From Octopus sinensis (lineage: Eukaryota), in contig NC_043011.1 in NCBI RefSeq assembly GCF_006345805.1, positions 31,632,464 to 31,696,463 on the forward strand: 64,000 nucleotides of DNA. The letters are read 5' to 3'. Below the pieces are notes generated by a model. It was given only the letters and a program-made list of their open reading frames with translations. It was not told the DNA's origin and ran no database searches. The position numbers and the translations under genes are program-made. Of this stretch, positions 1-64,000 are shown in pieces. Positions within the stretch are counted from its first letter, which is position 1. Each line of letters opens with the position of its first letter.

Positions 1-3000
1 GTGTGTGTATGCATTAGCAGAAAACCTAGTTAAAAATGTATCCATAAATGGTCCAGAATTGTTCTTGTCGAGGTATATTTGATTTTTCATAAATTATATA
101 TATTCGATTGAAGCATATTAAATAAGAACATAAGGTTAAGTAAATATGAAAATGCTTCACTTCATTTGAAACTATTTTGAACATAATATGTTATCTTTTA
201 TTATTGAAATTCTTTAATTCTTAGGATGATTTTGGAAAATATCTAGAAATCAGTGTCAAGTCATAAATTTATCACTGAAAATAATTATTCCTATAACGTG
301 GAAACCAAATTGTCAAAAAAAAAAAAAATCCATGCATTCAAATATTAGCAACTACATTATATGTCTTTATTAAGAAAGAGTTAAAACGTTGAATAAGCCT
401 CAGCTTATATTATATTAGATGTATACCCATCATAGTCTTCGAGATTCTGAACGTTGTTATTAGCACCTCCGGATATGCAAGATTTTTTGGTTTTTATCAA
501 CAGAGATTATGGAGGCTTCCAGTTTTTAGCATCCTACATTAAATTGGCTAATGGCAAAACAATATTCCTCAGGATGCAGTCTAGTAAATGTCAGTGTTTG
601 CTCTTAGGATTTGTTGATTCACATATTAGTAGTTCACAAATTTATTTTGGTACGAAACTCATTATGTGATATCCCAACATTTTAATAAACTATTAACTAA
701 GAGAATTTAGATATATATGCAATAACTTAGTATTTTGAAAACAGCGAATAGCATTTGTTTTATAAAGTAAAAAGACACTTGGAACCCAAAATTTATTTTT
801 CATGAAACCTACTTTGAGAAATACTGGCTTAGGTGTTTTGGAAAGTAAAGCATTCTAGATTGAAAAGACACATTTATATGAGTGGAATTCTGGCTTGAAA
901 TGCTTACTCTCTTTTGGTACCTCCCAAAAGAGTTGCTGTCTTCTGCTGTTGCATAGCTGTGGCTGATCTAAATTACACATCATTGGGGACCTTGTTTTTA
1001 ACTGAAGCTTATGTGATGGCCACCCTGAAGCTTCCAATGAATTTGAAAATTTTGCAAGCGAATGAAATATTCCTGGTCCACGACCCTGTCTCTTAATTTA
1101 TGGGTGTACCTGTATTTCCTAGAAGTGCCTGGAACACACATGCTGGCACACACACACACACACACACACACACATCATGATTTTACTGTCCACTTTTCTA
1201 TGTCCCTATGGGTAAAGGGAAGCTTTATTGAGACAAATTTTTCTTTACCCAGTTGCTTTTCTTGTCACCAACTGTCACCTGTTTTCAAGTAAGTTATATG
1301 TTCCTTTGTTTCTTGAATATCAATAGCCTTGACATGCTTTCATGGTGAGTTGCAAGCAAGTGAAGCTACTTGTATGATGGTGACTTTCGTTTACAATTAG
1401 CATGCTTGTATAAGGACCAGGGGAACAAATAAGCTTTCTCCACTTTCTGCACTTTCTGTCTACCAAATTTTTCTTGCAAGGCATTAGTCAAGCTGCAGCT
1501 ATAGTAGAAGATACCAGCCAACAGTGTCTTCTTAACCACCCAGCTATCTATGTCTATGTTTATATATGTATATACATTATATTAGCAAGTATATAAATGT
1601 GTGTGTGTATGCGTATGTGTGCAGAGGGGAGAAAGAGAGAGAAGTTTGTGTGGGAGCTAGGTGGGTCTTTTAAGCATAAAAGAATTGCTTCATTTTAGTA
1701 TGCTCTAATGCACATTATATTGTCACACCTCTCTTGGTAACAGATGTGACTTATCAGGGTTCTTTAACCACCAGTTGTGTGTGTGTGTGTATACACTTGC
1801 ACATACACATGTCTCTGTCTGTAATATATATGTGTGTGTATTGTCATACATTTGTAAACATTATTTTGAGATGGCTAAACTGATAGGTAAATATTGCTTA
1901 TTGAAATGAGGATAACTGTTAAGTTTTTTTATTGTTAGATTGAATACATAAAAAAAAATTCTATGGCCGTTTTGTTGTCAAGCTTTTTAAAGTTACTGTT
2001 GTCACTATAAATGTATGGGATATTTAAATAAAATGAATCTACATTAATGCGTTGTGTTAACATTTTTGCTTAACTCTTTAACATCCTGTTGAAAGCTTTT
2101 GAAGTCAAAAGCTCAGTTCTGTATTGATTAAGCAGAAAGTACCTAAAAATGGGTTTGGTCCTAGTATTTAGTCTCTTATGCTTATGAGGATGGATTAAAC
2201 AGGACAGGAGGTGACATGTGAGACAGGGAGTCGCTGAGCTGGTGTGTGACGAAAGATTTAAGACAAAGGACACCAAGATAAGAACAATAATAAAACTGAA
2301 GTGAACATTGAGTATATGGTGCATGTGTTTATTTGGAATAAAAATAACAAACAATATACTTACAGTATCTTATTGTGAAGATTGGCCGTATTGCAGAAGA
2401 TATTTTTCTTGTTCTTTTTTGTAAGTTGCCGTTTGTACTTAAAAACAATGTTGTGCATGTGTGGTTGTTCTTTAATCACACAACGCTAACTAAAAAACAA
2501 ATGCATATAAAAAAAAAAGATAAAAAAAGTGTCAAGTGAAATAATTTTAATGCAATTAGTAATAAATATGGACATACAAACATCACAAACAAAAAATGCC
2601 CCCCACCCCCACCCATGAAACAGCATATCCAGGTGTGCATGAATTTCAAGTCAGGTAGGATCAAAATGAACTCCCTTTTACCCTTCACATATGAATTAGA
2701 AGTAAAAAAAAATAACCCAACAGCTATTTTTGGACCAGCAACCTTGCAAAAGGTTCAATGCCCAACCATTCTTCAGGTTGTGTTTTGGCCAGGTCACTTG
2801 ATGAGAAATCAGATTGATCAAAATCAAGAAGAATATATCACTTTGTTTATCACCTCCAAAGCTTTATCTGCCATGGATTAATCAGTTAATTCATTGACTA
2901 AGTTGTTGCTCAAAGTATAATCAGTGGCCATTTTTGAAAGTTTTGGTAAAAAAAAAACCCAAAAAACTCAGCACCACGGATAATTTTAAACAACAAATGG

Positions 3001-17949: not shown

Positions 17950-18034
17950 ATGTTCTCGCCGCCAGTTGCTGGTCAAGGAATCAAAAATGGAACCACAAAT
18001 ATGGACTCTATGTATTCTGGAGGATATAAACAAG
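17950..18034 (+). CDS. TCF12: E-protein (TCF12/TCF4/daughterless family) coding exon A, MFSPPVAGQGIKNGTTNMDSMYSGGYKQ(G)
   Basis: Polypyrimidine tract plus cag acceptor, aag|gtaaat donor, 85 nt, phase 0 to 1. MFSPPV is the motif that follows AD1 in TCF4 (MFSPPVSSGKNG) and TCF12. The symbol marks the family; invertebrates generally have one E-protein gene. Confidence 0.9.
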
Positions 18035-44586: not shown

Positions 44587-44888
44587 CTGTGTATATATAT
44601 ATATGTATATATGGAAAACACAATTAGCACTTCAGAAACTGTTGACTGCACTTCTGCATTTGTTATTTGGTGTCAAAATTTTTTGTTGCCCCAACCATGA
44701 CCTGGTTACTGACATGGTTCCCTTGCAATTTTCAGAGTTAACCAGTAACCTCTATTCTAAGTAACACTTACTCACCCAGTAATGTATGTTATCTGTTTCT
44801 TGAAATTTGGAACTTATCTCAGAATGTGATGAGAGCTGTTTCATTAAGTTCTTATTTTAAAATGTTTTATTTTTATCTCTTGATCCAG

Positions 44889-45003
44889 GGCTTGTTGGGT
44901 AATAGTATGCCCATGTCTCCAGATTCATTGTCTCCAGTAGCCAAACCAGGTTCTCCATACTATGGTTTTAACAGTAAAAGAACATTAGAAGAACCTTTAC
45001 GTG
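44889..45003 (+). CDS. TCF12: E-protein coding exon E, GLLGNSMPMSPDSLSPVAKPGSPYYGFNSKRTLEEPLR(G)
   Basis: atccag acceptor, g|gtaagt donor, 115 nt, phase 0 to 1. Strong match to TCF4 [25 protein letters not shown]. Confidence 0.92.
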
Positions 45004-46220
45004 GTAAGTCTTTAACTGTTATATTTGATTATGAATGTTTAAAGTCCTCAGATGGGGTTTTCATTACTCTTGGATTCTTACATCCAATGTAGATTGAACC
45101 TGCTTCTGAGGAAGAGGATTTCACATCATTTATAAAAGAAATACATGTAATTAGAAATTTGGGACAACATAGTCTCTTTATCTGACAATCTGTTTGTATT
45201 ATAAAGAGACCAAAGTAATTTCTTAACTTTGGCTGTATGTTCTGGTGTAAGATTCATCTCATCGTGGTTTTGCCTTTCTGAGAGAGGTGGTTTGAATCAT
45301 CAGCATTCCACAAACCAGGTTTCATTATCATAGCAGCACAGAACACGTGTAAACACTGATGATCTAAAAGTGCAAATGTCCAAATTGCAATTGGTCAGAA
45401 CAGTAAGAAGTTCTTCAGAACTGTTGTTCAGGAAGTCCAAGCAGCATTATAATAACTGACCATCCACTCTAGTTACTCAGGTATCAAAAGACATCAACAT
45501 TCTTGACCATTTCACAGTCCATTGCTTCATCTGAACTGGTTCTACATCACATCAGAATGTTGTTTGTGCATCTCTCTCAGGTGTTTTTTTTTTTAGAATT
45601 GGTAGAAACACTGTGTTAATTGCAATTAGAAACATATCGATGTTGATGATGGGCTGACACATAGCTGAGGAAAGTAGAGATATGTCAATTCAATCTTGGT
45701 GTTATGAAAACTGCTGTGACTGCAGTGTTTTTATAAATCACTGCCAATTGGTAAAATGGCATGGGTTATTTATTCTTCCTGTTTTAGGTAAATCCATTTT
45801 CATAGTATAATGCATTTGAATTGAATAAGGAGTCACTACATTGACTGATGTAATAGTGTCTTGAGGTTTTACATGATGTATATAATTACTACCAATTTTA
45901 AATGTTGAGTAATTTTGAGAATTAGCCTATAACATGTATTCTTAACAACACATTTGCTCGCCTAATAATATACATTATCTGCTTTGTCAATAATATCTGT
46001 TTTGAACATGACCTGACTGTCTTATTTGAGCATTAGATTTATCCTCTACCCACCTCTTTTGTAGCTGAGGAAAATGATCAGTAATAGAATAAAGATCTAC
46101 TGGATCATTTCTTGATTGTGGTTCAGTATTTTTATAGATAGATATAATATCAACTACCAGTTATATAGTATTCTGTGAAAACAAACAAACAAACCCAATA
46201 ATACAGATATAAAATCAAAA

Positions 46221-46413
46221 TCATCATCATTTAACATTGATTTTCCTTGCTGGGCATATGTTGGACAGTTTGACAGGATTCAGCAAGCCCCAGGGCTGCA
46301 TTAAGCTGACATTGGAGCTCAATGTGGCCCTGTGGCTTGCTGAATCTTGTCAAACTGTCTGACCCATGCCAGCATGGAAAACGGACATTGAATGATGACA
46401 TGATGATGATGAT
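46221..46413. repeat. Fold-back of two family E tails in inverted orientation
   Basis: gacagtttgacaggattcagcaagcc pairs with ggcttgctgaatcttgtcaaactgtc. Arms about 85 bp, loop about 8 nt. Confidence 0.88.
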
Positions 46414-46608
46414 AATAATTTTGATACGATATGTCAATTCAGTTCCACTTCACTGACATTGCTTATTATTTTGTTGGTTCCAAATTAAATTTGGAACTCT
46501 GCTAATTACAAAGACTTCTCCTAGAGTCCAAACTTCAATTGTAAAATATATGATGGATCATGTTCTTTTTTTCTTTTTAGTCTTATTATCCCATTATAAT
46601 TTTTTCAG

Positions 46609-46673
46609 GTGCAAGAGCAGGAAAATACACACCTCCCAATCCTAATTCACAAAAACGAAGGAAAAGTGGTTCA
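46609..46673 (+). CDS. TCF12: E-protein coding exon F carrying a basic NLS-like motif, (G)ARAGKYTPPNPNSQKRRKSGS
   Basis: tttttcag acceptor, tca|gtaagt donor, 65 nt, phase 1 to 0. KRRK lies at the position of the TCF4 KKVRK NLS. Confidence 0.82.
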
Positions 46674-47165
46674 GTAAGTATATAATTACTGTTTGTCTTA
46701 ATTACCAATATATCACTTTCATATTTTCGGAGCTCTGAATGTTGACATTCACAATTAGTTTTAAACATTATCTGGTAGGATTTAAATGATAAGTTATAAA
46801 GCCTTTTTAAAGATTTTTGCTTAAGAAAGAAGTGAGTTGGAAAACGAGTATCTAAAAGATGCATTGGAAAACATACAAAAAAAAAAAAAGCATATTGTTG
46901 TGAAAATATTTTGTTGAAATATGTACAAAAATGTCATAAGCTGGTGGCCTGCGATCCAACCGAAGTAGATGGTGTTTACAAAGTAATATAGTTACTTTTG
47001 CTATTGACTTGGTGCAACTAACAGGATTTCGGTTATATGTCTTGATATAGGACAATCTTCTGACTAGCTTTGGAGATGGTGATTCACAAAAGACTAATAT
47101 GGCTTTGCTGTTGTGAGGAGAATGAGGGATTACAGAAAAAAAAATTCTTAGCTCAGTGTTTAGAG

Positions 47166-49635
47166 CAGTGGTTCCCAAACATTTTTTTTATTCGTGGCAC
47201 ACCTTACAAGAAGTTGAAATATCTTGACACTTTTTCTACATAAATTCTAAAAGTTATTCAAAAGGGGTTTTATACATCATACTAGCATAGCATAAACTAT
47301 AAAGTAATAATATAGATAATTAAAAATTGCATGTACTTACTCCTTATTCAATGTATGAAGTAAAATTATCAACGAGAAACACATGCTTGATGTTTTTTGG
47401 AAAGGTTTTCAATATTGGGAGATTTTTGAGAAAGACAAACCCTCATTTCTTCTTTGATGCAATGGAGCCTCTCTTTTTGGGGATTTGATGTTATTGAGGG
47501 TTGACAATTCCAACTCACATAAATACAATGTGGAAAACTGCATCAAAACGAGTAAAGCTATTTTTGCTACTGCGGGGCATTCTTATATCATAGCAATCCA
47601 AAATGTATCCATAGGTAACTCAGTATACTTGATTTTAAGTCAGCGATCTCTAGATAAAGATGCCAATTCCTCTTCTTCACAAATTTTTAGACCAATATTA
47701 GATGGAATTTTTATGAAGGGATTTTGAACTTCTGTGTTCATTGATGGAAAATAAAAGTTTATTTTTTCTTCCAGATTTGTCAAATGTTCAAATACAATAG
47801 GAGTCATTTCTTTCATGCAAATTTATGTGTTAAGGGAAATGTTTCGAATTTACCACCTTCAGTTCTATTTTTTTAAATTACAACTTTCTTTTTAAATGGA
47901 ACCAGCTTATCTGTTGTAGTGACAATGTTTTCATTTCTACCTTGCATACTTGTGTTGATGCTATTAAGTTGTGCAAATATCTGTTAAATATTCCAGCTTG
48001 GAAACCCAAAATTCACATTGTAGATATTCCAAGAAGCATTCATGTTTTCTTCTTTAAAAAATGCATGCAATTCTTTCTGAAGTTCATGTATGCGATGTAG
48101 CACCTTACCTTTTGAGAGCCATCTGACTTTTGTGTTTAAAAGTAAGCACTTGTGTTAGAATCCATATCAACACAAATTTGTTCAAGTAAGCAACACTTCA
48201 ATGGCCTACTTCTAAATATTAACCATTTCAACAACTTGGTTTAATACTTGCTTGAGCTCAACTGGTATTGTTTTTGAAACTAGTACCTCCCTATGTAGGA
48301 AGTAATGAGTGCATATAACATTAGGATTTTGCTGTTGTATGAGCGATACAAAACCTTTAATAGAGCCTATCATAGATGGTGCCCCATTGGTACATATTCC
48401 AACATATGAATTCCAGGTAGGCAGATGAAATGTTAAAAGTATCTTGACCTCTTGTAGTGAGTGGCATTTCTTCACAACAAAGGAACTGACTTATGATTCG
48501 GTTACCTTCAATAAAGAGAATAAATATAAGTAATTGTGCTTTGTTGTTAATGTCCTTTGATTTGTCAACCTGTAGAGCAAATTCTGAGTTCTGAAGTTTG
48601 TTCTGTACATTTTCCTCTATATCAGCAGATAAATCCATAATTTTCCTATGGATTGTATTATTTAAGAGTGGAATCTTGCTTATTTCTTGCTTGGCTTCAT
48701 CACCTAACATGGTTTTATCCATCTTTCAAGCGGGTAAGATAATCGAGTGTGTTGTTGTAAAATGTCTTTTCAACTTTCTGGACAATATGCCTTCTTTAGA
48801 CATCTTTTCACCACAAACAGCACACAATGGAAGCACACAATCCTCGTTGCCAGTCCAATGAAACCCAAACTTTAAATAGCTATTACAATATTTACGATTG
48901 GCTTGAGCTTTCACATTATTATCACTACACTTAGTTGCTTTTGATGAATGTTCACTTTCAAATTCATAATCATCACGGTTATGTTTCCTCTTCATAAACT
49001 GTTCCGTTTTATGGGTAATTTAGTCTGTTAATATGAATTGTATCACACAAAGAGCACAGATACAGTAAAACAGATTAAGACAAGTGACCAGTGAGCTGTG
49101 AAAAATGGCAGTGTGTCACATGTTATTGGACTCTTTTGAGAAGTCTTTCAAAATGAATTGAAAAGAAGAAAATTCTTGCCACTATATGAATGAAAATATT
49201 GAAATACAGCCGCAATACATGAGGACATATTATTAAAAGATTTAGTTCAATAATTTATTTTTCACATGTATTATTGAAATGAAAATTGCTGAGGCTATGA
49301 CCAAAATAAACTAAAACATAGTCGTGAAGTGAATATGTCCATAAGATGTCAATTTCTAGGATAGCTTGATGCTAATTTAGTTCTTATCCTAATGAAATTT
49401 CAGATTCAAAATTGAATAACACTGTCATGCCATAATTAGCCTAAATGAATTGAATGACATAACCTCCTCTCATTCTTTGTTTAAAACTTAGTATTTAGTT
49501 TTTTGCCACTTTGACATTTATATATGAACTTTCAAATGAATTTCGGTTTGTATTTTTCATATTTTGAAATATAATCTTACTCTTCTTCGAGGCGCATCTA
49601 ATTACATCTTGCGGCACACGGTTTGGAAACCACTG
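47166..49635 (-). mobile_element. Buster/Charlie-type hAT DNA transposon, decayed, both ends present
   Basis: TIRs CAGTGGTTCCCAAAC and GTTTGGAAACCACTG. Imperfect 8-bp TSD gtttagag/ggtcagag. Transposase remnants lie inside. Confidence 0.92.
47370..49006 (-). pseudogene. hAT transposase pseudogene (ZBED5/SCAND3/FAM200-like)
   Basis: Frameshifted fragments: RKY...LKFGF...PLCAVCGE...KLKRHFTTTH (BED-type zinc finger), FALQVDKSKDI, ICTNGAPSMIG...CTHYFLHREVL. Multiple stops and an internal deletion. Confidence 0.9.
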
Positions 49636-49966
49636 GGTCAGAGCGTCAGGTTTGCAATCATGAGGTAGTAAGTTCGATTCCTGGACCAGGCTGTGTGTTG
49701 TGTTCTTGATCAAGAAGACACTTTATTTCACGTTGCTCCAGTTCACTCAGCTGTAGAAATGAATTGTGATGTCACTGGTGCTAAGTTGTATCAGCCTTAG
49801 CCTTTCCCTTGTATAACGTAGATGGTATGGAGAGAGGAGGCTGGTATGCATGGGTGACTGCTGGTCTTCCATAAACAACCTTGCCCAGACTTGTGCCTTG
49901 GAGGGTAACTGTGTAGATGCATCCCAGTCATTCATGACCAAAGGGAATCTGTACCCTTACCCTTTA
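49636..49966 (+). mobile_element. SINE family B, head interrupted by the hAT element
   Basis: Continues gctcagtg from 47151-47165. Homologous to 50880-51215. Confidence 0.85.
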
Positions 49967-50843
49967 CTCTGTTCAATCAGAATTCTGTATTGAGAATGTT
50001 ATAGTTATATTTCATTACTTTTGATGCATGATTTTTCACATATTTCATATAATTATATAATTTTTGAAAATATCTTTTACAATGTATTAAATCAGATAAT
50101 TATATTTAGAATGATCTGATGTTTCAGTAATTCCAAAATCAAGACTCACACTTATTAAAAAGCTGATAAGGCATCATTATCCTTGTTTCTTTCTTTCTTT
50201 TCTTTATTTTCAAAGTCTGAGTAATAGTTTAAGTATCAATGCATTGAAGGTTGTTTCTTTGAATTGTGAAAAATAACGGAACCTTTTTTCTGACATTTAA
50301 AATACTTGTAGAGTCCAGTTAAATCTTTTTAAAATATAGTTTCATATGCAACACTTGCTGATATTTTATAGTCTGAAAATGTTAAACAATTAAATAGCTT
50401 TGATGTGTTTTGCTGAAATCAGTGACACTAGCTTCTGCATCCATATTTACAGCTGTTTACGTATTTACTTCTGCGCCTATATTTGCAATTACTTCACATG
50501 CATTACACTGTTATATAGGGGATGTCTTTTTATCACTTTTCTATTGATTATCACTGATATCTTTATTACATTCAGTATTAAATTCTTGTGGAGCTGGTAG
50601 TGACAGACTTACTCCAGAACTGAAATGTGTTAGCAACTGTTGCCATATGTTTTTGTGCTCACTTTGCGACCAATCAACAGAATCCTTCAGCAGGCTGTCA
50701 AACCAACATCAATTTCTGTTTCTCCTGATGCCTTAAACATGAATTTAAGTTATGTCTCATCAATATTACAAGTTTTTTTTTTGTTTCTTATATTGCAATA
50801 GCATTTATATTCTCCTTAAATGACATTCAACTATCATACATAC

Positions 50844-50879
<36 letters not shown>

Positions 50880-50880
<1 letters not shown>

Positions 50881-51215
50881 AAGGGGCATGGCTCAGTGGT
50901 TAGAGAGTTAGGCTCACAATCATGAAGTAGCGAGTCCAATTTTCAGACCGGGCAGTGTGTTGTGTTCTCAAGCATGATGCTTTATTTCATTTGCTCCTGT
51001 TCACTCAGCTGTAGAAATGAATTGTGATGTCACTGGTGCCAAGTTGTATCAGCTATTGCCTTTCCCTTGCATAACATAAGTGGTGTGGAGAAGAGAAGGC
51101 TGGTATGCATGGGTGACTGCTGATCTTCCATAAACAACCTTGCCCGGACTTGTGCTTTGGAGGGTAACTTTCTAGGTGCAATCCCATGGCCATTCATGAC
51201 CGAAGGGGGACTTCT
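50880..51215 (+). mobile_element. SINE family B, intact
   Basis: A-box-like tggctcagtggttagag, central gttcactcagctgtagaaatga. Confidence 0.85.
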
Positions 51216-52222
51216 TCTGTAATATATCTTTATTTACTAACTTACCTTTAAAATTCACATCGACCAGATCTTTTAGTTTCATCCAACCTGGTTGTGAAAA
51301 CAGCCTCCTTTCTGCAGTATGATAGAATAGGGAGTAATATTGAACTTTGAAAAAAATATGAATAACTATTTGGTATCATTTTACAGTTTTAAGTATTCCA
51401 GATGTAGAAAAATGGATGCAAAATAAATTTTAACTTGTTCTATAAATTTTTGCATTGTGATGTTGTAGGATGATTGCTTGAAGAACTGGTACCTTTTGAA
51501 GTTTGCCTGTCACAAGTAGCTGTTAATTCTTTAGTTTAGCTGTCAAGCCACTATTCTCTAGTTTGTTCACTTTATGGAAAGATATACAAATACAACACAA
51601 CCTGTTTATGTCATATTAAAATCCTAAAGTTTTAATTAAATCAACTTTACAATTTTTTCTTTCTTTTCTTAATAATCTAATTTGTTTTACTTTTAACACA
51701 CATGGAACATTTGTTAAAGTAACTATTTCAACATCTACCGGAGCTGCGTAACTCTACAAGTACTGTGGCTATGACTGTTTAGTATAACATGACTAATTAC
51801 ATGAATATAGTGCCTTTGTTATGTAGGTTTTACATGTAACAATTTGTATATATCTCTCCATATTGATTGTGAAGAGAAATTGGTGACTACCTCAATTAGT
51901 ATTAGATTAAAATTACTGTTACTATTCACTATCTTTGATGTGAGCTTTGAGCAAAAATTGAATAATATGTGAAATATATTTTAAAAGCTGTGCAAATAAA
52001 AAGAAATAAAAGAAAGAGTAGCTTTTTTTTTTTTTTTGTAGATCAAAATATATGAAATTTAGTTAATGCATTAAATTAATATTGATTTTTGCTTGATAAA
52101 CAGAAAGAATATTTCTAAATTTAGAATAATGATTGAAGCTATCCATTAAAACTTTTTTTTTTGCAGGGTAATCAAATTTAACAAGTCTTAGTTTATATAT
52201 AGCTATATCTATATATATATAT

Positions 52223-52398
52223 AGGGAGAATTCACAAAAAAACAAAAGACGAAGACAGGTGGTGTAGACAACAAACAGATGTATTAGTATAATGCTCGGG
52301 AAGTGAAAAAGTCTTTAATGTTTCTAGCCTACACTGTATTACACAAAGAAACAAGGAGAGAAAATAAAGAATGTGTAGTGGCTAGTGATCTGTCATGA
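52223..52398 (-). mobile_element. Penelope-like terminal fragment flanked by (TA)n
   Basis: Resembles Penelope 3' ends with a very decayed hammerhead region (gtttctagcctacac). Recognised by pattern only. Confidence 0.45.
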
Positions 52399-52603
52399 TA
52401 TATATATATATTCTTCTCTCAAAAGCCTACATCATTTATTCATAATTTTAATAGTGTGAGAGCTTCTTTTAAAAAGCTTACAGAACATATACAATCTAAG
52501 TGATGTTTGATAATTTTATTGCCCACATGGTCAGATCATCGGTATGAATTGTATCAAGTTGTTATCAAAAGCATCCCTAAGGACAAACTATCTGACCAAA
52601 CTA

Positions 52604-52920
52604 TGTGGCTGCATAGTGAAGAAGTTCCACATGGTTTTAGATTTGATTTCATTTTATGGCACCTTCAGCAAGTATCTTCGACTATAGCTTTGGGCTGACC
52701 AATGCCTTGTGAATGGAATTTGTAGACAGAAACTGTGGAGTCACATCATGTGTGTGTGTGCATTTATGTGTTTGTGTCCTGTAGCTTAGTTGTTCAGCCG
52801 AAAAAAAAAGTTAAAAGAAATACCAGACTTTAAAAAAACATGTACCTGGTACAATTTAATTGACTAAAACTCTTTAATGCAGTACCCCAGCATAATTGCA
52901 GTCAAATGATTGAAACAACA
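52604..52920 (+). mobile_element. SINE family A, diverged
   Basis: Head, core and tail homology. Confidence 0.7.
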
Positions 52921-52999
52921 GCCGCTGTATTAAACTGTGTTGATTTGTATTGACTGTTATATAATGGATATTCTTCTTCAAAAAGTATCTTTAGATGGA

Positions 53000-53580
53000 G
53001 CTATCCATCCATCTTCTTCCCCCACTATTCCTGGATGTGTCGTTTGAGTAGAGCCCTTGGCCACCTCCTTCATAGGGTCCTTTCAGAAGCAACCATCGTT
53101 AGACTTTCCAGTTGGATTTTCAAGTATGACCAACTGAATATTATCCAGCTGTTTCATTCTCAGTCTGTCTTTAGGTCTCCTGCCGGTTGGTTTGCTCGAA
53201 GAATCTGTCTTGCAATCCTTTCCTGTAACATTCTAATCACGTGTTTGTAATACTGGAGCTGTGACCTCTCAATGTGAAGAAGTAGCAGCTCAAACTAGAG
53301 GGACTTTTCAATCTCTGAATTACACAATCCTGTCAAGTAGTGTTACCCTAGAAATCATTCGATAGAACCCTGTTTCAGCTGCTTGTATTTGTGATGATGC
53401 ATTTTGTTCATTGCCCAACATTTTATGATCATATATGAGGATAGGCGCAAAAACCAAATTGGAGATCCATTATATTTACCTATTGAATATAAGTAAGATG
53501 TGAGTGGTTTGTTGCCAGAGGCCAGTTCTCCGTAATGCAAAGCTTTTAAGATCCCTACTGTCATGGTCAGAGAAGATGGC
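53000..53580 (-). mobile_element. RTE-clade LINE 3' fragments
   Basis: Minus strand LLLHIERSQLQYYKHVIRM..ERIARQIL and ILKALHYGELASG match RTE C-terminal motifs. Confidence 0.7.
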
Positions 53581-55539
53581 TGGAGTGGTACTCAAAGAGA
53601 TGTAAATACAGTGGCAATGAAGTAAAATAGTCTCATGGTAATATGCCTAAGAAGGTGGATAGAAGAGGGCATGGTATACAGAAGAATCAGGGAGGGTTGG
53701 TAAAGTGCAAGAGTGTGGGAGGAGAGTAAGAGATAGATAAAAATATGGAGTGGGAGTAGTGAGATGTGTATAGGGGATGAACGTAGTGAATGGTAAACAG
53801 GGATGGTAGGATGGTAAATATGAGTGTGGCGATGATGGTAGGTATAACGGGGGGTGGGGGCAATTAGGTGTATCTCAGAGAAGAGGGAGTGTTGACTGGC
53901 AGTACAAAAGTAGTAGATAAGAGAGATGGAGGAGGGATGAGTGACAGGAAGATAAAGGTAGGATAGGGTGGGAATTGGATATAAACAAGGGTGGTAGTAG
54001 TTAATGGTAAAAATAAAGGATGGTGTTAATAGGAAGTGGTTCAGAAGAGGGACCCCACTGTCTATCTGGCTGGGGGAAGTAGAAGAAAAAGTAGCAGTTG
54101 TAGACTTGGAAGGAACATTGAGAGAGAGACCTAGATAAGTGCATACACATTGTGCTTTGAGAGCCTCAGTCATACCCATGCTAGCCTAGCTGGACAGATT
54201 TTCTCAACCTCTGTATATCACACCAATTATCTAGGTCCTTTGTCATCTCTTCCATGTTGCTCAACATCCTGAGATTAGATTTTTTGCTTCCTCAGGTTCC
54301 ATATACTGTAAACAATTGGCACTTCTTTATACAATATTCTCTCTCTCATGCTACATCTTATTCCTCTTGGGCTCAGTTTTCACTGGTCCTCATATTCAAG
54401 GCCTCAGATCTTACTACATTGTAGCATTGCAGTTCATACACAAGTATCATAGTTTGTCTTTCACTTCTGTCCATCTACCAATCCAGATTGTGATGTATAT
54501 GCAAAGATAAATTTCTCAACTGCATTAACTAAGACTATTGTAATCTTAATTATCCTATCTCTCACTCATGACTATGTTGATTACTTTATCCATTTTGCTG
54601 CCAATATTATTTATATTCCACCTACTAATATCAGCCCAGGAAAGTTTATACCTTTATACCTATAGGCACAGGCATGTCTGGGTGGTGAAGAAGCTTGCTT
54701 TCCAACTATGTGGGAGTATCTTCTACTATAGCCCCAGGCCAGCCAAAACCTGTTGTATATGTGTAGGTATGCACTTACGCGTGTATGTTTGTTTCTACAT
54801 TTGTCTAGATGTCATGTGATAGTTGTAAATGAGCATCACTATCATACATCATTTCCAGTCTTCCTTGTTGAGCTAATTTTAACGATAATTTCACAAAGGA
54901 ACAACATAATTTTTATTTGTTTTAGTTAGGTGTCATAAGTAATTGCAAAATTTTCAGAGCAAATGCAACATAGAAAGAGCCTATTATTTATATGCAATAT
55001 TTAAACTTATTTCAAGCAACATTTTTAAAGGACAGAGTAAAAAAACATTTTTAATACTAATTCTGAATTTTACTTTTAAGTATGTACTTCCAGGTAATTT
55101 GTGTTGGTGGTTACAGTGGATAGTTTCCCACTGTGTAATTTGTCTTCAGTGCTAGATTGCTCTTCTTTAAACTTTTACATCCATCTGTACACTTTTGCTT
55201 TTGACAATGATGTCATCTACTTGAATGATTTGTAGCCTGCTGTGAGTTTTGGACATCATCTTGCACCTCTTGCAATGAAGACGGACAGGAAGAAGAAGAG
55301 CTATTCTACCAACCTATGTAATTTGAAAGACCTGTGTCTGTTAAGAATAAGATTATTCCCACTTTTGCATTACTTTTGGTACAATACGCATTCATATATT
55401 TATGTCTATGTGTATGTACTAATATAGATATGTATATAGCTATCATTTTACGTCCATTTTCTTTGTGTGTGTGTGTGTATATATGTATGATGGACTCTCC
55501 TGTTGTTAGATGATTTATGAAGGTTCGATAATTTTTTAT

Positions 55540-55786
55540 CAAACAAGAACAAACACACAGATGATTTGTTTATAGTGATCAAATGTTTATGTACCCATAA
55601 GCTCATTCCCTCCATCAGATCAACATTACCTGTACAGGTGCCACATGTCAGATGTCGAAATGCTCACAGAGCAATGTGAAATGAAGTGCTTTGCTCAAGA
55701 ACACAATGCAATGCCCGGTCTGGGAATTGAACCCATGATCTCGCAGTCGTGAGTGCAACACCCTAACCACTAAGCCATGTGCCTTC
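55540..55786 (-). mobile_element. SINE family C
   Basis: Reverse complement of 19779-20040. Confidence 0.75.
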
Positions 55787-56077
55787 ACACACACACATAC
55801 ACAAACGTGTTTAAACACTCATATATATGCATGATTTTACATTCATTTCTCCTGTTAGTATCCTGTTCTATTGTTACATGCTTTATATAGCCAGAGACTC
55901 TTTTGGCCACCAAATCGCACTGGTTTTGTAAATAAAGTAATTTTAATTCTTTTGGCCTCCACATATCACAGCTGATGAAGTAGCTCAGTTTTCTTTACTG
56001 GAGAACATAAAATCATTGGCATTTTGGGGGCAAACTTAATGTAGGCACTGCTGAATCAACACATACATACATATGTA

Positions 56078-56117
<40 letters not shown>

Positions 56118-57668
56118 ATGTGTGTTTGTGTTTGTTTAATATTTGTCTTTCCCGTGCTAGCATGGAAAAACCTGTAAATATGAAACAAATATAATATTCA
56201 TCTAACCAATGCTAGAATGCTGAAACAATTATAAGCAAAATCTCCTCTTTGTCTGCCTGTCTTTCTCTCTCTCTTTCTCTCTCTCTATGCATATATAAAG
56301 ACCCCTCCCACACAACTTACACTATTGCCTTTCCATTTTGTCCCTTCCTTCCCTCCCTGCTATTATTAATACCTATTCTACTACTGTTACTCTCTCCACC
56401 TATCTGCCTAAGATCTCTGCATTCTCTCTCACCTATTCTCCCTCAATTATAGGGACTACTTTAGACCTTTAACTTTGCGAGATAGTGCTGGTGCCATGAA
56501 AAAAGGCACCCAGTACACTCTGTAAAATAGTAGCATTAGGAAGGGCATCTATTCATAGAAACCATGCCAGAGTAGACAGTGGAGCATGATGCATTCCCAA
56601 CTCTTCAGATCTTCTCAAACTGTTCAGTCCATGGCAACATGGATGCCAGATTTTAGAAGATGGATCATTGCATGTGTGCATATGCAGTTGTGTGTGTGTG
56701 GTATCTACCACTTTACAAGCCAATGAAAACACACTTATGTGATTGCTTGATCTGTTGTAAATAACAACCAGATTTTCCACGAATCAAACCCTTCCATCTT
56801 AAAACTGAAAGGGGACACTGGACATGGTGTTCCTGGATCTACAATAAAATGTATTTTTCCAGGCTGGAACATTTCTGATTATATCTTCTCAATCAGTTTT
56901 ATTATAGGGCCAAGTGACAACAACGAGGTACATACACATGTACCTGTATGACAGAAATATTCAATGAATAAATTAACTTGTCACAGATTCAATGATTTGA
57001 ATAGAATCATAATTTTTTTTTTTAATCACTAAACATGGCAATCTTCCCTGCCTTTACATATGCTCCTAGTTGTATTTTGTTTTTGTTACTTCTTTCCTTT
57101 AAATTAGCATCTAATCACATACCCTGTTCATTAAGCTTGAAAACCTGTTTTTAATAAGCCAATATTTATAAATGTCCTGTACAAAACTTAGCTTGCAAAA
57201 TTATTATTTCATTGTATATAGAGGTCTAATCAATTTCTCTTCTCCAGAGAGAGAGACTGTTATTTGTCAGAGTTTTTTTATTAGAATTTTTAATCCTAAT
57301 TTTCATTTTGACCTGTCACGTTTTATCCATTAGGGAAATATAGTCAATTGAATTCATCTCAATAGATTATTGAAACTTGTTTTATTGGTTGTATATCAGC
57401 AAGAAAAGCAAAATTGATCTCACCAAAATTTCTACACAGGACATTGAGTCAGTATAGTTTTGCATGAATTGAAGCACCTCAAGGGACCTTGTACCAAGAA
57501 TGTTATTGACAATTAGTAGTAAAGTTAACCCAAATTTCATTGGGACCCCCACCCACAGAAAGCTTAAATCTGGAGCAGCGATGTAAAAAAAGTTACAGTA
57601 GTTTTTAAACTTTTTTTTTAATATTTTAATGTCAGGTTCTTAGTTATAAATTCACTGTTATTATTACC

Positions 57669-57701
<33 letters not shown>

Positions 57702-57894
57702 GTATGCACACACCCACACACGCATTCACTCACTATATTTAGTATGTATCTTAGTGTATTCCTTTTCCTTCTTGTTCAACATTTGTATGTTTGTCCCTTT
57801 CCATTGTTCTCATCTGTGCCATTTAAAACTTGTAGCTTCACTGTAAGACCCGATATTTTTGACGACATAAGGCTGTTTATCTGCTCACTCAACT

Positions 57895-58400
57895 TGAGCC
57901 AATGAAGCAAGCCTCAGCTGTGCCATTCCCATTTACTGCTCTTTATAAAATTTAACAAAATGCAACAGCTGGCTACAATTTTATTGAACATTATTTTCTA
58001 ACTGATAAAAGAATTTTTTTTTTTCAAGCATGTATTTGTGTGTGTATGTGTGTTATTTAACAATTATTCCATGCATTATTTCAATTAGATATTCTCTAAT
58101 TCATAATGAAATAGTATATATTTTTTTAAATAGTTGACTTTCGTTTGCTTACTTTTGTTTTTCTTCTACTTTTTTGTTTAGTTAATATTTTCTTTCCCTC
58201 CTATTCTTCAGTAGTTTCAGGTAGTCTCTCTCTCTAATTGTGTCATGAACTCACTTGAAGTAGATGTTACTATTAGAAATAGTTCAATCAATAGTTTAAA
58301 TGACCTTTATATTATAATGGATAGTCTTAAAGACTTCCTGGCTTCAGAAATAGAATGTTTGTAAAGAACACCTCATTTCCATTCAATGATAGGAAGTGAC
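57895..58400 (+). promoter_or_regulatory. Candidate internal promoter
   Basis: CCAAT at 57899, TATAAAA at 57944, CAGCTG E-boxes at 57915 and 57966, ETS-like ACTTCCTG near 58333 and AGGAAGTG near 58391. Motifs only. Confidence 0.3.
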
Positions 58401-58691
58401 AGTGAAAGAGCTGTTATTTGGGATCTTCTTTTTCCACAGTATTTACTTTCTGTTGGAAGGAGCAACTGTAAGGATGTGAAAATATTTCACTCTTTGTAAT
58501 ATCTATTCTGTTTGCTTTGATTAAGATTTAACGTCAACTATGTAATACTCACTTGCTGTGTAATGGAGCTAAAGCATATGCAATGATAGTGTAAAGTAAT
58601 AATACATATCTTTTTGGCTACAATGCTCTTTGGTTGATATATTCTCTAAAATAAGCTTGAACTTATAGTTTGTTGTAAACAATTCTTTTCA

Positions 58692-58733
58692 ATGGATTAT
58701 ATTGAGCTAAAGCCATTACAATTTTACCATGAG
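58692..58733 (+). CDS. Candidate alternative first coding exon of the E-protein gene, MDYIELKPLQFYHE
   Basis: ATG followed by 14 open codons ending at a consensus GAG|GTAAGT donor in phase 0, the same phase as the exon F donor. Lies in unique sequence. No transcript evidence. Confidence 0.5.
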
Positions 58734-59674
58734 GTAAGTTTATTTCTTCTTTTCTTCTCCTTTTAAATCAATGTGAAAAAGTATAGGTCTTTTAATATGT
58801 ACCTTTAATATTTGTTCACTGTACTTAACCAAATATTTAAAAGAAATTATACTTTTACTGTGTATTTATTATTTTAAACTTTCCTTTTTGTGTTACACAG
58901 GTCAGGGAATTAGTTCTTTCTCCTTATCAGTGTTATTTGGCTATATTCAGACTTTTGATCATGTTGATTTGTTTATAGACAACCTCTGTGTGTGTACGTG
59001 TGTGTGAGTGTGTGTATCTTCCTGTTTTTCAACCCGGTTTGCATTTTTTGCATCATTAAAATTAGTATTACCTGAAAAATGGTAGTTATAATGTAAAATC
59101 TAAAAATGTACTTTTAATTATAGTTTATTATGTTGTGCAAAACTTGTATTACTCATTTAATAGTTTCTCCTCTCCCTCTATATTGTAGTTCATTGTAAAG
59201 GATGTATTAGATTAGCATTATTGCATTAACTAGTTTATATGAAGTTTCCTTTATGGTGTCATCATCATCATCATCTTCCATGCATGAATTGCATGAGTTT
59301 ATTCACCAGTCCCCAGTCGGTATGAACGAGCCTGATATTCTATAACTGAAAATATTTTTCCTTCCTATCTCTGCTTCAAGTTTTCATTTTACATTGGATT
59401 AACAGCCCTATCTTTTTAGTGAGTAATATTTCATGACTGGAAATGCCTCGACACAATTTTATTCTCAACAAAATTATCTCTCTAGCTTCAGTGAATTAAG
59501 TACCTGTAATGTACTGGGTTTTACTAAATGAAATATACTGCTTCTTCACTGGTGTAAGGATTTGAGTTGATTAAAATAATAATAATAATAATTTTCAGTA
59601 TTTTCTGTAATGCAACAGCACTGTTAGGTTGCTGTTGTCTCTGTTTTGTGCATGCGTGTATACTGTTATGTATA

Positions 59675-59883
59675 TAACCCTTTAACATTTAAATCGACCC
59701 AAATATTCTTCTTGTTTTATATTCAAACTGACTGATCCGGCTTCTTCACACCTACCCTATAAAGTCCTACTAAAAATTTTTTAAAATCACATCGTTGAAA
59801 TCTCAAAGCTATAAGATACTGTTATGATTAATAATTAATTAAACATTACATTTGATAGTGTAATCTGAATGCTAAAGTGTTAA
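59675..59883 (+). mobile_element. piggyBac-like MITE copy
   Basis: taaccctttaacattt ... aatctgaatgctaaagtgttaa. Confidence 0.7.
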
Positions 59884-60532
59884 ACAGTGTAGAATGTTCA
59901 AATGTGCTACTTCCTGCGATGATTCTGTTGTCAATATTACTTATTATTCAGATCAGAGGTAGCTGCTATCAATGAATGTTTATCCATATCAAGTAGCTTT
60001 ACTGCATTTCATGCTATACCAATGGAGCATTTCATCAAGTTTTGCTGTTCCTGCTGCTGCTCACAACAGTAAAATGTTTGCTGTTTTGTTGGGATTGACA
60101 GCCAGGTAAACCTGGGATTGAGCTTTTGTCACATTGCACCTGTGTATATAACATTACAAACGACCAGCCCATTCTGGGTTTTCTTATGTCTTATCCATTC
60201 AGCCGTTTGTGACTCTCCCATCTATTTTCTAATGCTAATTATATTGAAAGAGATAACTTCAGGTTATATCTGATAGATTTTCAGTGGAGTTTAAGCAGAA
60301 GGAATTAATATAATGTGAAGAATTATTTTTGCCAAGACCCATCACTAATGATGCCAGAGTGGTTTGACTTGTTTTCTTTTTCCCTTAAGTCATATACTAA
60401 CTGCAGCCATCACAACAATAAACTCATCCTTTTGCCCTGAGATTTTTCCCAGTGTACAGACATGCTCAACATACAGCAGCATAAACATATTACCTTTATT
60501 ATAAGCATGCAGAATGTATAATTTTTTAGGTG

Positions 60533-60950
60533 TGGGAGAGGCTGTGTAGTAAGTAGCTTGCTTACCAACCACATGGTTCCCGGTTCAGTCTCACTGTGTG
60601 GCACCTTGGGCAAGTATCTTCTACTATAGCCTCAGGCCGACCAAAGCCTTGTGAGTGGATTTGGTAGATGGAAACTGAAAGAAGCCCATGGTATATATGT
60701 GGATATATATATATATATATATATATGTTTGCATGTCTTTGTTTGTCCCCCCCCACACACACACACAACATCACTTAATAACTGATGCTGGTGTGTTTAC
60801 GTCCCTGTAACTTAGCAGTTTGACAAAAGAGACCGATAGAATAAGTATTAGGCTTACAAAGATTAAGTCCTGGAGTCGATTTGCTCGACTAAAGGCGGTG
60901 CTCCAGCATGGCCACAGTCAAATGACTGAAACAAGTAAAAGAATAGAAGA
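60533..60950 (+). mobile_element. SINE family A, full length
   Basis: Closely similar to 26228-26612. Confidence 0.88.
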
Positions 60951-63900
60951 ATACGTGTATTTTCTGTTAGGACAGAATTTTTGAGTTATGAAATTTGATT
61001 GAGTAAATTCTTGTCTGTGGAGTAAGTTTTTCACTGTAGCAGGAGCACTAGCGTGTGTGTATTTTTAATTTTTTTTTTTTTTTCATTGTGAGTAACACTC
61101 TTGATTGTTGGCTATTTTTCTCTCTATCGACCATACCATATATCAGTCAGTTTTCAGATTATAATATCTTATTATTTGCAGTTAATTTCATATTGATGTG
61201 TGCACCCACAACCTAGATGATTGCTATTTCATTCATTTCAGATATTTTCACAGTGTCCAATGCTGAAATATCTATCTTGTTATTGTGATTATGAGACCTA
61301 TTCATTAAGTCCTTTCAACCTGTTTGCTCACTATAAGGTGGTAATCCCTTGATAAATCTTTATATTGTTAAAAATTGTGGAGAAAATCATGAATATCATT
61401 CTTTTCATCCTCGCCCCTCCCCATTTTTTGTGTCAAAGGTCAGATGGCAAACCTGTCGTTACCATCACCATTTTTATTACAAATGCAATGGAGAGCATAA
61501 ATAGTAAAAAGTTTGATCAAATACCCTATGGTTATACAGTTTCATTTCTGTAGATCCTCTTAATCAGCTTTACCTTTCATTATTATGTAGACCATAAGTA
61601 CCATTTAAAGAATAATTGTCATCGCAGTGGTGTATTGGGAGAAACAGCAAAATATTGGACAAAATGCCTGTTACATTCAACATTATGAGTTCAAATCCCA
61701 TTGGGATCAACTACAGCTTTCATCGTTCTGTAATTGATAAAATACGTACTGGTGCGATTGATTCAGTTTACTGTACTCCTCCCAAAGTTGGCATTGTGCC
61801 AAAGTTAGATATTAAATTCTATTACTATTAAATGCAGTAATATTTATTTTAAAATAAATTGTGGGCTATAGAGATGATAGTAGTATCAATTTTTAAGTGT
61901 ATCACTTTTCCTTATTTAATGGTTGCTTTTACTAGTAGTCTAGTTGAGCTTTCTTTAACCATATCTACATACCACTGAGCCTTTAATCCTTTTAATTCCA
62001 CACTGTGTTTCTAAATTCCACTGATTCTATTCACAAATTAGGTCATCTTAATGTTTTATAGACACCCTCAATAACACTCCAGCCTTGAATTCTGTTGTGA
62101 CACTTTTAAGTAGTTGGATTACAATTAACATGCCCAGAATTGGACCCACATAGATTTTGAATTCCTCTGTATAAAAATAATAACCTGAATATGCCTTTTT
62201 TTTATATATATATTTCCCACACCTGAATTTATAACTTCCTTTCATAAGTCATTCATCCATATCTAATTCCTGCTTTCTTCACCACACCTCACTATACAAT
62301 ACAGCTCTTGTCAAATGCTTTACTTTGTTAGACTCTGCATTAATGCTTATAGACATCTAATCCCTAATACTGAAATGACAGTATTAGATTAAAATTGATA
62401 TTCTTTCACACTAATCACATGGAGTGGTAAGGGGGTCCATTTCCAATCATAGTTTTCATCTCATTGTTTATATTTCTTGATTATTTATAACAGTTGATCC
62501 AATGCCTTGTATCGCTGTGTACATTACGCTGATTCAATCAAGTTTATTTCCTCTTCAAGTTGGCTTTGAACATAGCAGCAGAAACATCCTGTTAAATCTT
62601 GGTCGTCCGTTGGTCACCCAAGGAATATATATATCTGATTGAAAGTGAACTTTCAATTGCTATGTTTAAAATACATCAATTTTAATCAATGTCATTTGGT
62701 AGGGTTCGGATTAAACTCCTAAAATATTATTAAAATGTTCTACTGAAGTATAACTGCTGAGTAAAAATTGACAGCTGCGGCAGTAGCATTGTTGCTATAC
62801 CCCAGGCCGATGGTGGGGGTAGGATGCTTAAGTCCTTCAGAAAGAAGTACAAATCATTATATTGGATTATATTTTTGTTGATTTAAATTTATTGAAAGCT
62901 TAACTTTACAGTTAAATACGAATTTTTAGAAAGACCTATTTAAATTTCTCTGATCTACATTGTAACTACAATTGTGTTTTAAAATATAAATCCAAAGAAA
63001 GTTTAAAAAAGTTATAGTATTTGTTTTAACTCATTAAATCTTGCTATGATCAACTTAACCTTTCAACCCTCCAGGGTCAATAAAATAACATACCAGTCTA
63101 GTTTTGAGGTCGATGGTATCCACTAACCCCTCAGAATTGCTAACTTTGTGTCTAAGAAAGTCCCTCTCAAAATTGCTTACTTCTTGTCTAAATTAGAAAC
63201 CGTTTTGATGCCATCTTATCAGATGGCAGTAAACTAAGGCAAAATGCGTTGAGTGTTGCGTCATGTGCTACACACGAACAAGAAGGAACATCTTGTGAAA
63301 CTGAATTGAAATGTTATTGTTTATAGTACGGCAATTGATTCCTTCTAACACAATTGTAAATCAACCTTATTTTCACGCTTTTCTCCAATTCCAAAAATAT
63401 CGATCGAAATATGGTGTATAAACTATAAAACTAAACTACCCCTTCTCTTTATTCAAATTACTATCAACTGTAACTAATGCTAAATGCCGAGTTTTTAACA
63501 GCATGTTTCAAGAAAAGATAATCTGTGCCTTCGTAGATCATTAGTTATCTCCCTTGCGTTACATCGCGTATTGTTTTTTTCAATATTTTGCGTATTTGCG
63601 ATCAAGGTATATACTAACTTGAATTGATGTATAAATTGTTTTAAGATATTTTTTAAAGTTTATATCTATATTATTCATTTTGAGTTACATTGCATCAAAT
63701 GATGTTGATGGTGCTAATAAAATAAGAATATTAGGTGTTGGAATAATGATTAGATATGTGACTTTTAAAATGTATGATATAAAATATAAAGCAATGAATA
63801 TTTAAAGTTTGTAAGAGCTACTAAGATAATTCATTACTACCATTTATGAAATAATACAAATACTGCAATCTTAGGCACATCTCAGTTCTCCACTGTGCTT

Positions 63901-64000
63901 ATGTGAATGCATATTTAAGTAATGTCTATAGCAAAGAGGAGAGCAAAGATTTGGAATGACAGATTCATGAAAATGTTACTTTATTGTTTAACATTATATA

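Follow-up and report, generated by a model that had tools for sequence, protein, structure and literature searches.

Does the octopus E-protein gene start short forms from internal first exons, as vertebrate TCF12 and TCF4 do, and is the ATG-initiated exon at position 58692 of the stretch analyzed here (64,000 nucleotides, hereafter the window) the counterpart of the vertebrate Alt exon? The vertebrate Alt forms, HEBAlt of TCF12 and E2-2Alt/TCF4-A, are well described in two reports (PMC3346973, PMC3137626), the second of which shows the human TCF4 A and H N-termini joining VYAPS straight after the NLS exons. As predicted for octopus, HEBAlt and E2-2Alt/TCF4-A start from a separate first exon that lies in the intron following the NLS exon and makes a phase-0 join to the VY[AS]PS exon; and like the predicted octopus form, HEBAlt and TCF4-A lose AD1 and the N-terminal NLS but keep AD2 and bHLH.

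The window spans the 5′ half of a TCF4/TCF12-type E-protein gene from octopus. Exons for AD1, AD2, and a class I bHLH domain were found in order in the window and in the downstream stretches L003 to L008, and match the Octopus-labelled TCF4/TCF12 protein P0012; the bHLH exons lie near 115.8-121.3 kb in continued window numbering, and the class I assignment follows PF00010 proteins named TCF4/TCF12. A motif search for a vertebrate-type KKVRK/PPGL exon gave no result, the octopus exon carrying KRRK instead. The 58692 exon sits in the 29.9-kb intron between this KRRK exon and the VYSPSP exon, which begins 17.8 kb farther downstream. None of the 14 Octopus cluster members is a short form (all 14 annotated isoforms are long), nor did an octopus short form appear as its own cluster among the best 120 of 1055 matches to P0012 residues 212-420. 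The present analysis corrects the octopus gene model, which is without any short form in the records examined.

Table 1. Features of the octopus E-protein gene around the intronic exons; positions above 64000 continue the window numbering.
Feature	Window position	Other coordinates	Strand	Evidence
Long-form coding exon MFSPPV… (second part of AD1), absent from predicted short forms	17950-18034		+	match to P0012
Long-form coding exon GLLGNSMPMSP…, spliced to 46609	44889-45003		+	joint 45002>46608, GT..AG, 4 of 4 runs
Basic-cluster KRRK exon (ARAGKYTPPNPNSQKRRKSGS), position of vertebrate NLS exon, phase-0 donor	46609-46673		+	sequence, RNA joint
Transcribed leader, presumptive 5′ UTR of internal first exon	58170-58691		+	RNA contigs; 12 upstream ATGs with short ORFs
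D-class internal first exon, coding part, MDYIELKPLQFYHE	58692-58733		+	ORF, RNA contigs, snail isoforms
Splice donor GTAAGT, used	58734-58739		+	X2 and X4 contigs stop fitting at 58735, 28 loose letters each
Intron past candidate donor, continuing beyond window	58740-64000		+	ends at VYSPSPDEY… exon
Predicted R-class first exon MYYYSRPKLQ	67464-67493	G000:C15:31699927-31699956; L002:9464-9493	+	peptide comparison
Predicted Alt-type first exon MYCTTYPFYRTLMYLPPKGN	71880-71939	G000:C15:31704343-31704402; L003:3880-3939	+	peptide comparison
Common phase-0 exon VYSPSPDEY…	76566-76653	G000:C15:31709029-31709116	+	phase-0 acceptor

The open reading frame from ATG 58692 encodes MDYIELKPLQFYHE and ends in phase 0 at GAG/GTAAGT (58733/58734). 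The preliminary description had read it as an ATG-to-donor frame in unique sequence, behind an NLS exon whose donor is also phase 0 and in the intron equivalent to that of the vertebrate Alt exons, and was right on each count. An exonised repeat or a non-coding RNA was considered and rejected: 58500-58900 and 58100-58520 each have a single match in the genome (by a search that skips very common words), no tandem repeat was found on the exon, and no Rfam family matches 57500-59500. As sequence, the feature is only modestly rare: an in-frame ATG is present for 5 of the 36 GTRAGT sites on the plus strand of the window, and among 300 introns simulated with matching dinucleotide composition, 21 contain an AG/GTRAGT site with an in-frame ATG at least 8 codons upstream; the 58734 donor is the sole AG/GTRAGT site of the 29.9-kb intron. 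We conclude that this is a real, unannotated internal exon because of the RNA contigs and the cross-species peptide described below, not because of the ATG and donor motif.

Contigs from 4 of 24 listed runs (coded X2, X4, X10, and X14) were mapped on 44620-64000. RNA is only a guessed label for the listed runs, and the runs were picked for holding the candidate stretch, so contig cover alone proves little, but all four contain the GT..AG joint 45002>46608 and therefore hold spliced RNA. In run X2, a 599-letter contig fits 58170-58735 (record 6-571), and in run X4 a 340-letter contig fits 58424-58735 (record 29-340, minus strand), each with 28 letters loose beyond 58735. The two runs come from two studies and bear two organism labels, and both contigs break at the same base with equal loose length; the splice donor at 58734 is used in these two of the four runs. 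The VYSPSP exon starts GTT and the intron after 58733 starts GTA, so a spliced contig should fit two letters past the donor, and the sum, 2 + 28 = 30, equals what a side branch should share with the main contig when the assembly uses 31-mers (k being taken from the 31-letter words). From this geometry of 2 + 28 letters, rather than from joined letters, we infer that 58733 joins the VYSPSP exon at 76566.

The other leader contigs cover 58258-58411 (run X4), 58316-58568 (run X10), and 58182-58619 (run X14); among the 32 pieces listed, ahead of 38,395 others, none from runs X10 and X14 reaches the donor. Listed cover starts at 58170-58316 across the four runs, and transcription extends at least 520 nt 5′ of the ATG and through stops, as in a leader. 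In run X14, which bears a different organism label, the leader is less diverged, with 11 differences in 437 letters compared with 155 in 2549 for its 7 other listed pieces (Fisher p 0.0015), although repeat copies from other places may be among those pieces. The contigs reach only a low depth over the exon (4.7 and 5.3 compared with 59 and 40 for the long-form contig), depth being a poor measure and its bins no ranking of expression. Very high depth was seen in all four runs over repeat families at 60148-61441, 49149-52383, and 55619-56265; repeats dominate the 19-kb stretch mapped, and the loose-end and joint listings have 3103 and 374 further rows. The contigs show neither start nor strand; we think it likely that the 58692 exon is a first exon with its own promoter.

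Short isoforms from other species were gathered by the same search with P0012 residues 212-420 (best 120 of 1055) from the members of 20 clusters, up to 15 each, and several of the members listed have their own N-terminus ahead of the common exon. Specifically, i) the short N-terminus of Babylonia X5 (P0406, XP_076438962.1) ends DYIELKPVQ, and that of Pomacea X8 (P0226, XP_025081083.1) ends DFIELKPVQ, in both cases directly before VYSPSP; ii) among the 1348 open segments of the intron, the one at 58734 is the best match for each of the two, and 0 of 30 shuffles do as well; iii) the octopus peptide has 8 of 9 and 7 of 9 residues in common with the two snails, the changes (Y/F, L/V) being conservative; and iv) snails and octopus are alike in a short N-terminus of the D[YF]IELKPVQ type before VYSPSP, but the snail proteins start at a Met farther upstream and join right after Q, whereas octopus adds FYHE. 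Of 440 stored proteins, just 2 carry the motif, both automatic gene models from caenogastropods, which gives it a known range, limited by annotation, of cephalopods and caenogastropods; no additional case was found among 50% representatives, and a query with P0226 residues 18-60 returned one, uninformative, candidate. These comparisons suggest that the 58692 exon likely represents a separate mollusc-conserved class, D[YF]IELKP[LV]Q (D), a second class beside Alt.

Taking this together with the exon at 71880 discussed below, we consider it quite probable that the 58692 exon is a spliced and likely internal-promoter first exon of a short E-protein, forming its own mollusc class, and that 71880 is the likely Alt orthologue. 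An internal promoter 5′ of 58692 would start the short transcript, and splicing of 58733 to the VYSPSP exon would yield a predicted 615-residue protein in which fourteen new residues replace the first 209, with loss of AD1 and the N-terminal basic cluster and retention of AD2 and bHLH. By analogy with HEBAlt and TCF4-A, such a protein would form dimers and bind E-boxes while lacking the cofactor site of AD1. Vertebrate AD1 binds p300 and ETO (PMC3346973), so the cofactors that accompany the short form on E-boxes and with its partners would be expected to differ; promoter choice and AD1 loss would be the main effect, and the DYIELKP peptide a secondary conserved tag. The internal N-terminal peptides are short, and the region in which they lie is likely disordered. 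AD1 and KRRK would go, but a second basic cluster before the bHLH domain, SKRAR (P0012 residue 585), stays in the predicted short form. The SKRAR/SKRPR cluster is kept in octopus, Argonauta, a squid-like record, and the snail short forms, whereas it is missing from the two vertebrate-type short forms tested (P0103, P0264); partner-dependent nuclear import as in TCF4-A may consequently not apply.

The best surviving alternative, which we nevertheless regard as unlikely, is that the exon belongs to a low-level internal transcript that is spliced but makes little or no protein, either because a uORF-rich leader blocks the ATG or because the conservation resides in the DNA or RNA. The 12 ATGs in 58170-58691 could suppress translation unless starts lie closer; the low contig depth, the absence of the exon from 14 of 14 annotated Octopus isoforms, and the different, earlier Met of the snail peptides all fit such a view. 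Opposed to it are the 8 of 9 and 7 of 9 residues common to octopus and snails, with conservative changes and in frame with the VYSPSP exon, and the lack of an Rfam match around the exon.

Somewhat less likely still is a cassette or second exon entered through an upstream acceptor, which together with the leader would act as a stop-containing poison exon in the long form. There is a pyrimidine tract with an AG (58210-58220) and an in-frame AAG/ (58655), and these, together with 5 unfitted letters at the 5′ end of the X2 contig and 374 further joints beyond the 15 listed, leave some room for this, but the X2 and X14 contigs cross 58210-58220 from 58170 and 58182, none of the 15 joints listed enters 581xx-586xx, and both snail models place the peptide in a short N-terminus rather than as an insert in a long form.

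The intron also contains a far better Alt candidate. Listing all ATG-to-GT phase-0 peptides of the intron brought up MYCTTYPFYRTLMYLPPKGN at 71880, with the donor AAT/GTAAGT, 13 kb beyond the 58692 exon and outside the window. A loose pattern, M[YF]C..YP.Y...[ML]Y[LM]P.K, describes the N-termini of Pomacea X10, Ridgeia, Lamellibrachia, and Mytilus; 71880 is the best match for the first three species (0 of 30 shuffles each), and Mytilus P0234 picks it with 3 of 30 shuffles equal and 88 of 1000 in a second test, which is only suggestive, as is the second-best match of Bulinus P0069 (439 of 1000). Tachypleus X7 (P0432) resembled Alt by eye, failed both tests (6 of 30; 619 of 1000), and was set aside. 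When 8 vertebrate-type Alt peptides, 3 of them named and 5 judged vertebrate by likeness, are compared with the 317 ATG-to-GT peptides of the intron and the comparison is anchored at start and donor, 71880 takes ranks 1 and 2 and is thereby first of the 172 starts, with 0 of 60 shuffles as good; in a test with shuffles of the 71880 peptide itself, 37 of 2000 were as good. Unanchored, none of the 8 vertebrate-type peptides gave a significant match in the intron, and 1 of the 8 picked 71880 first, with 3 of 30 shuffles as good. Because these unanchored pairwise tests are not significant, we consider orthology of 71880 with the vertebrate Alt exon likely but not proven.

That the 58692 exon is itself a diverged vertebrate Alt orthologue is very improbable and already contradicted: it shares intron, phase, and predicted protein outcome with Alt, but against the same Alt peptides it ranks 48 of 317 with 249 of 2000 shuffles as good, far behind 71880, and Pomacea carries the two classes as separate isoforms, X8 (D) and X10 (Alt). 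The 23-residue Alt domain of HEBAlt/TCF4-A is unrelated to the 58692 peptide, the Alt-like octopus peptide being that at 71880. The preliminary description, which had seen no obvious homology to an Alt peptide of the MYCAYPVPGMG type, was correct to the extent that there is no measurable likeness, but in proposing 58692 as the HEBAlt/TCF4-A counterpart it had the wrong exon. By position and predicted product the 58692 exon is Alt-like; judged by its peptide, it is not a member of the Alt family. A long/short E-protein arrangement, of which a switch was also proposed there, likely exists, given a donor in use and snail short isoforms with the peptide before the common exon. Its suggestion of an ancestral or convergent origin leans toward ancestral, by way of 71880 rather than 58692. 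Least probable of all is a chance ATG and donor covered by pre-mRNA, for although simulated introns can hold such a motif (21 of 300), the runs were picked for holding the stretch, and other parts of the intron also have contigs at depths of 3-7, runs of two studies break at the same base with equal loose length and snails conserve the peptide ahead of the same exon.

A third internal first exon is predicted between the D and Alt exons. MYYYSRPKLQ (R) is the best match for the Priapulus X4 and Haliotis (abalone) N-termini, with 0 of 30 shuffles each; in bivalves, Mizuhopecten P0171 (8 of 30) and Sinanodonta P0401 (6 of 30, and not the top match) both fail. The intron thus likely carries three conserved internal first exons, D, R, and Alt, of which R and Alt are predicted from peptide comparison; for each, the predicted product is a form without AD1 and without the N-terminal basic cluster.

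Other internal N-termini were encountered. Pomacea X9 (P0225) starts MDYI..K like the 58692 exon and has a CCLE motif near its end, but none of its matches in the intron was significant (20 of 30). In octopus, CCLET precedes a phase-0 GTAAGT at 72167-72187 (L003:4167-4187), about 240 nt past the Alt exon and without an in-frame ATG; this likeness was not significant. In human TCF4-H, CCLD precedes the equivalent common exon (PMC3137626). An ATG-to-donor phase-0 peptide of 26 residues (CAG/GTAGGC) lies at 48339-48416 in the same intron, without a homologue among the stored N-termini tested. In other spiralians, internal N-termini are also present in Haliotis P0029, starting upstream of the NLS exons, in Tubulanus P0070 (5 residues), and in Mizuhopecten P0033 (about 57 residues).

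As a general idea, an Alt form in an invertebrate has been put forward before. Schrankel and colleagues reportedly trace the Alt form to the ancestral bilaterian. A sea urchin E-protein with a conserved alternative form has been published (Schrankel et al. 2016, Dev Biol 416:149, PMID 27265865) and resembles octopus in being an invertebrate E-protein of this kind. We found no published description of molluscan short E-proteins, of the DYIELKP class, or of the three-exon set in a literature search that most subscription papers lay outside; and as far as searched, the snail D-type isoforms are automatic gene models and apparently not studied isoforms. Human TCF4 exons 10a-10c (isoforms A, H, and I; PMC3137626) are likewise three 5′ exons before one common exon, as we infer for octopus. 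None of the human TCF4 N-termini in Figure S1 of that report is like DYIELKP, and one-to-one homology is supported for the Alt type only.

Tentatively, and with more doubt than conviction, one may imagine that the ancestral bilaterian intron was a battery of internal promoters (Alt, R, D, and perhaps a Cys-Cys class as in TCF4-H), each with its conserved N-terminal peptide; Alt would then belong to vertebrates and spiralians, R to spiralians and a priapulid, and D to cephalopods and snails. Were this so, human exons 10a-10c would be a remnant of the battery, and the peptides functional motifs conserved over more than 500 million years. In T-cell development and in TCF4-linked brain disorders, what the short forms of E-proteins do is still to be settled (PMC3346973, PMC3137626); an invertebrate gene with what are likely three conserved short forms would make it possible to separate the effect of AD1 loss, which is common to them, from that of the added peptide, which differs.

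Three further observations concern the 3′ half of the gene. An identical tandem duplication of 847 bases at 115558-117248 (L007:7558-9248) holds the bHLH basic-region exon twice (115827 and 116671) and is likely an assembly artefact, the alternative being a very recent duplication. Among squid-like proteins, P0003 differs from P0018 and P0019 in the basic region before RVRVRD, the two versions being ERLRRQANNARE and ERRRANNTRE; this suggests alternative basic-region exons parallel to E12/E47, although a search of 112-121 kb in octopus turned up no second version. Just before the AD2 core, at 99445-99483 (L006:1445-1483), lies a cassette exon of 13 codons, LRYSRGENKNSQK, which is present in P0012 and missing from P0005 and occupies what is probably the site where HEB takes its ankyrin-like exon.
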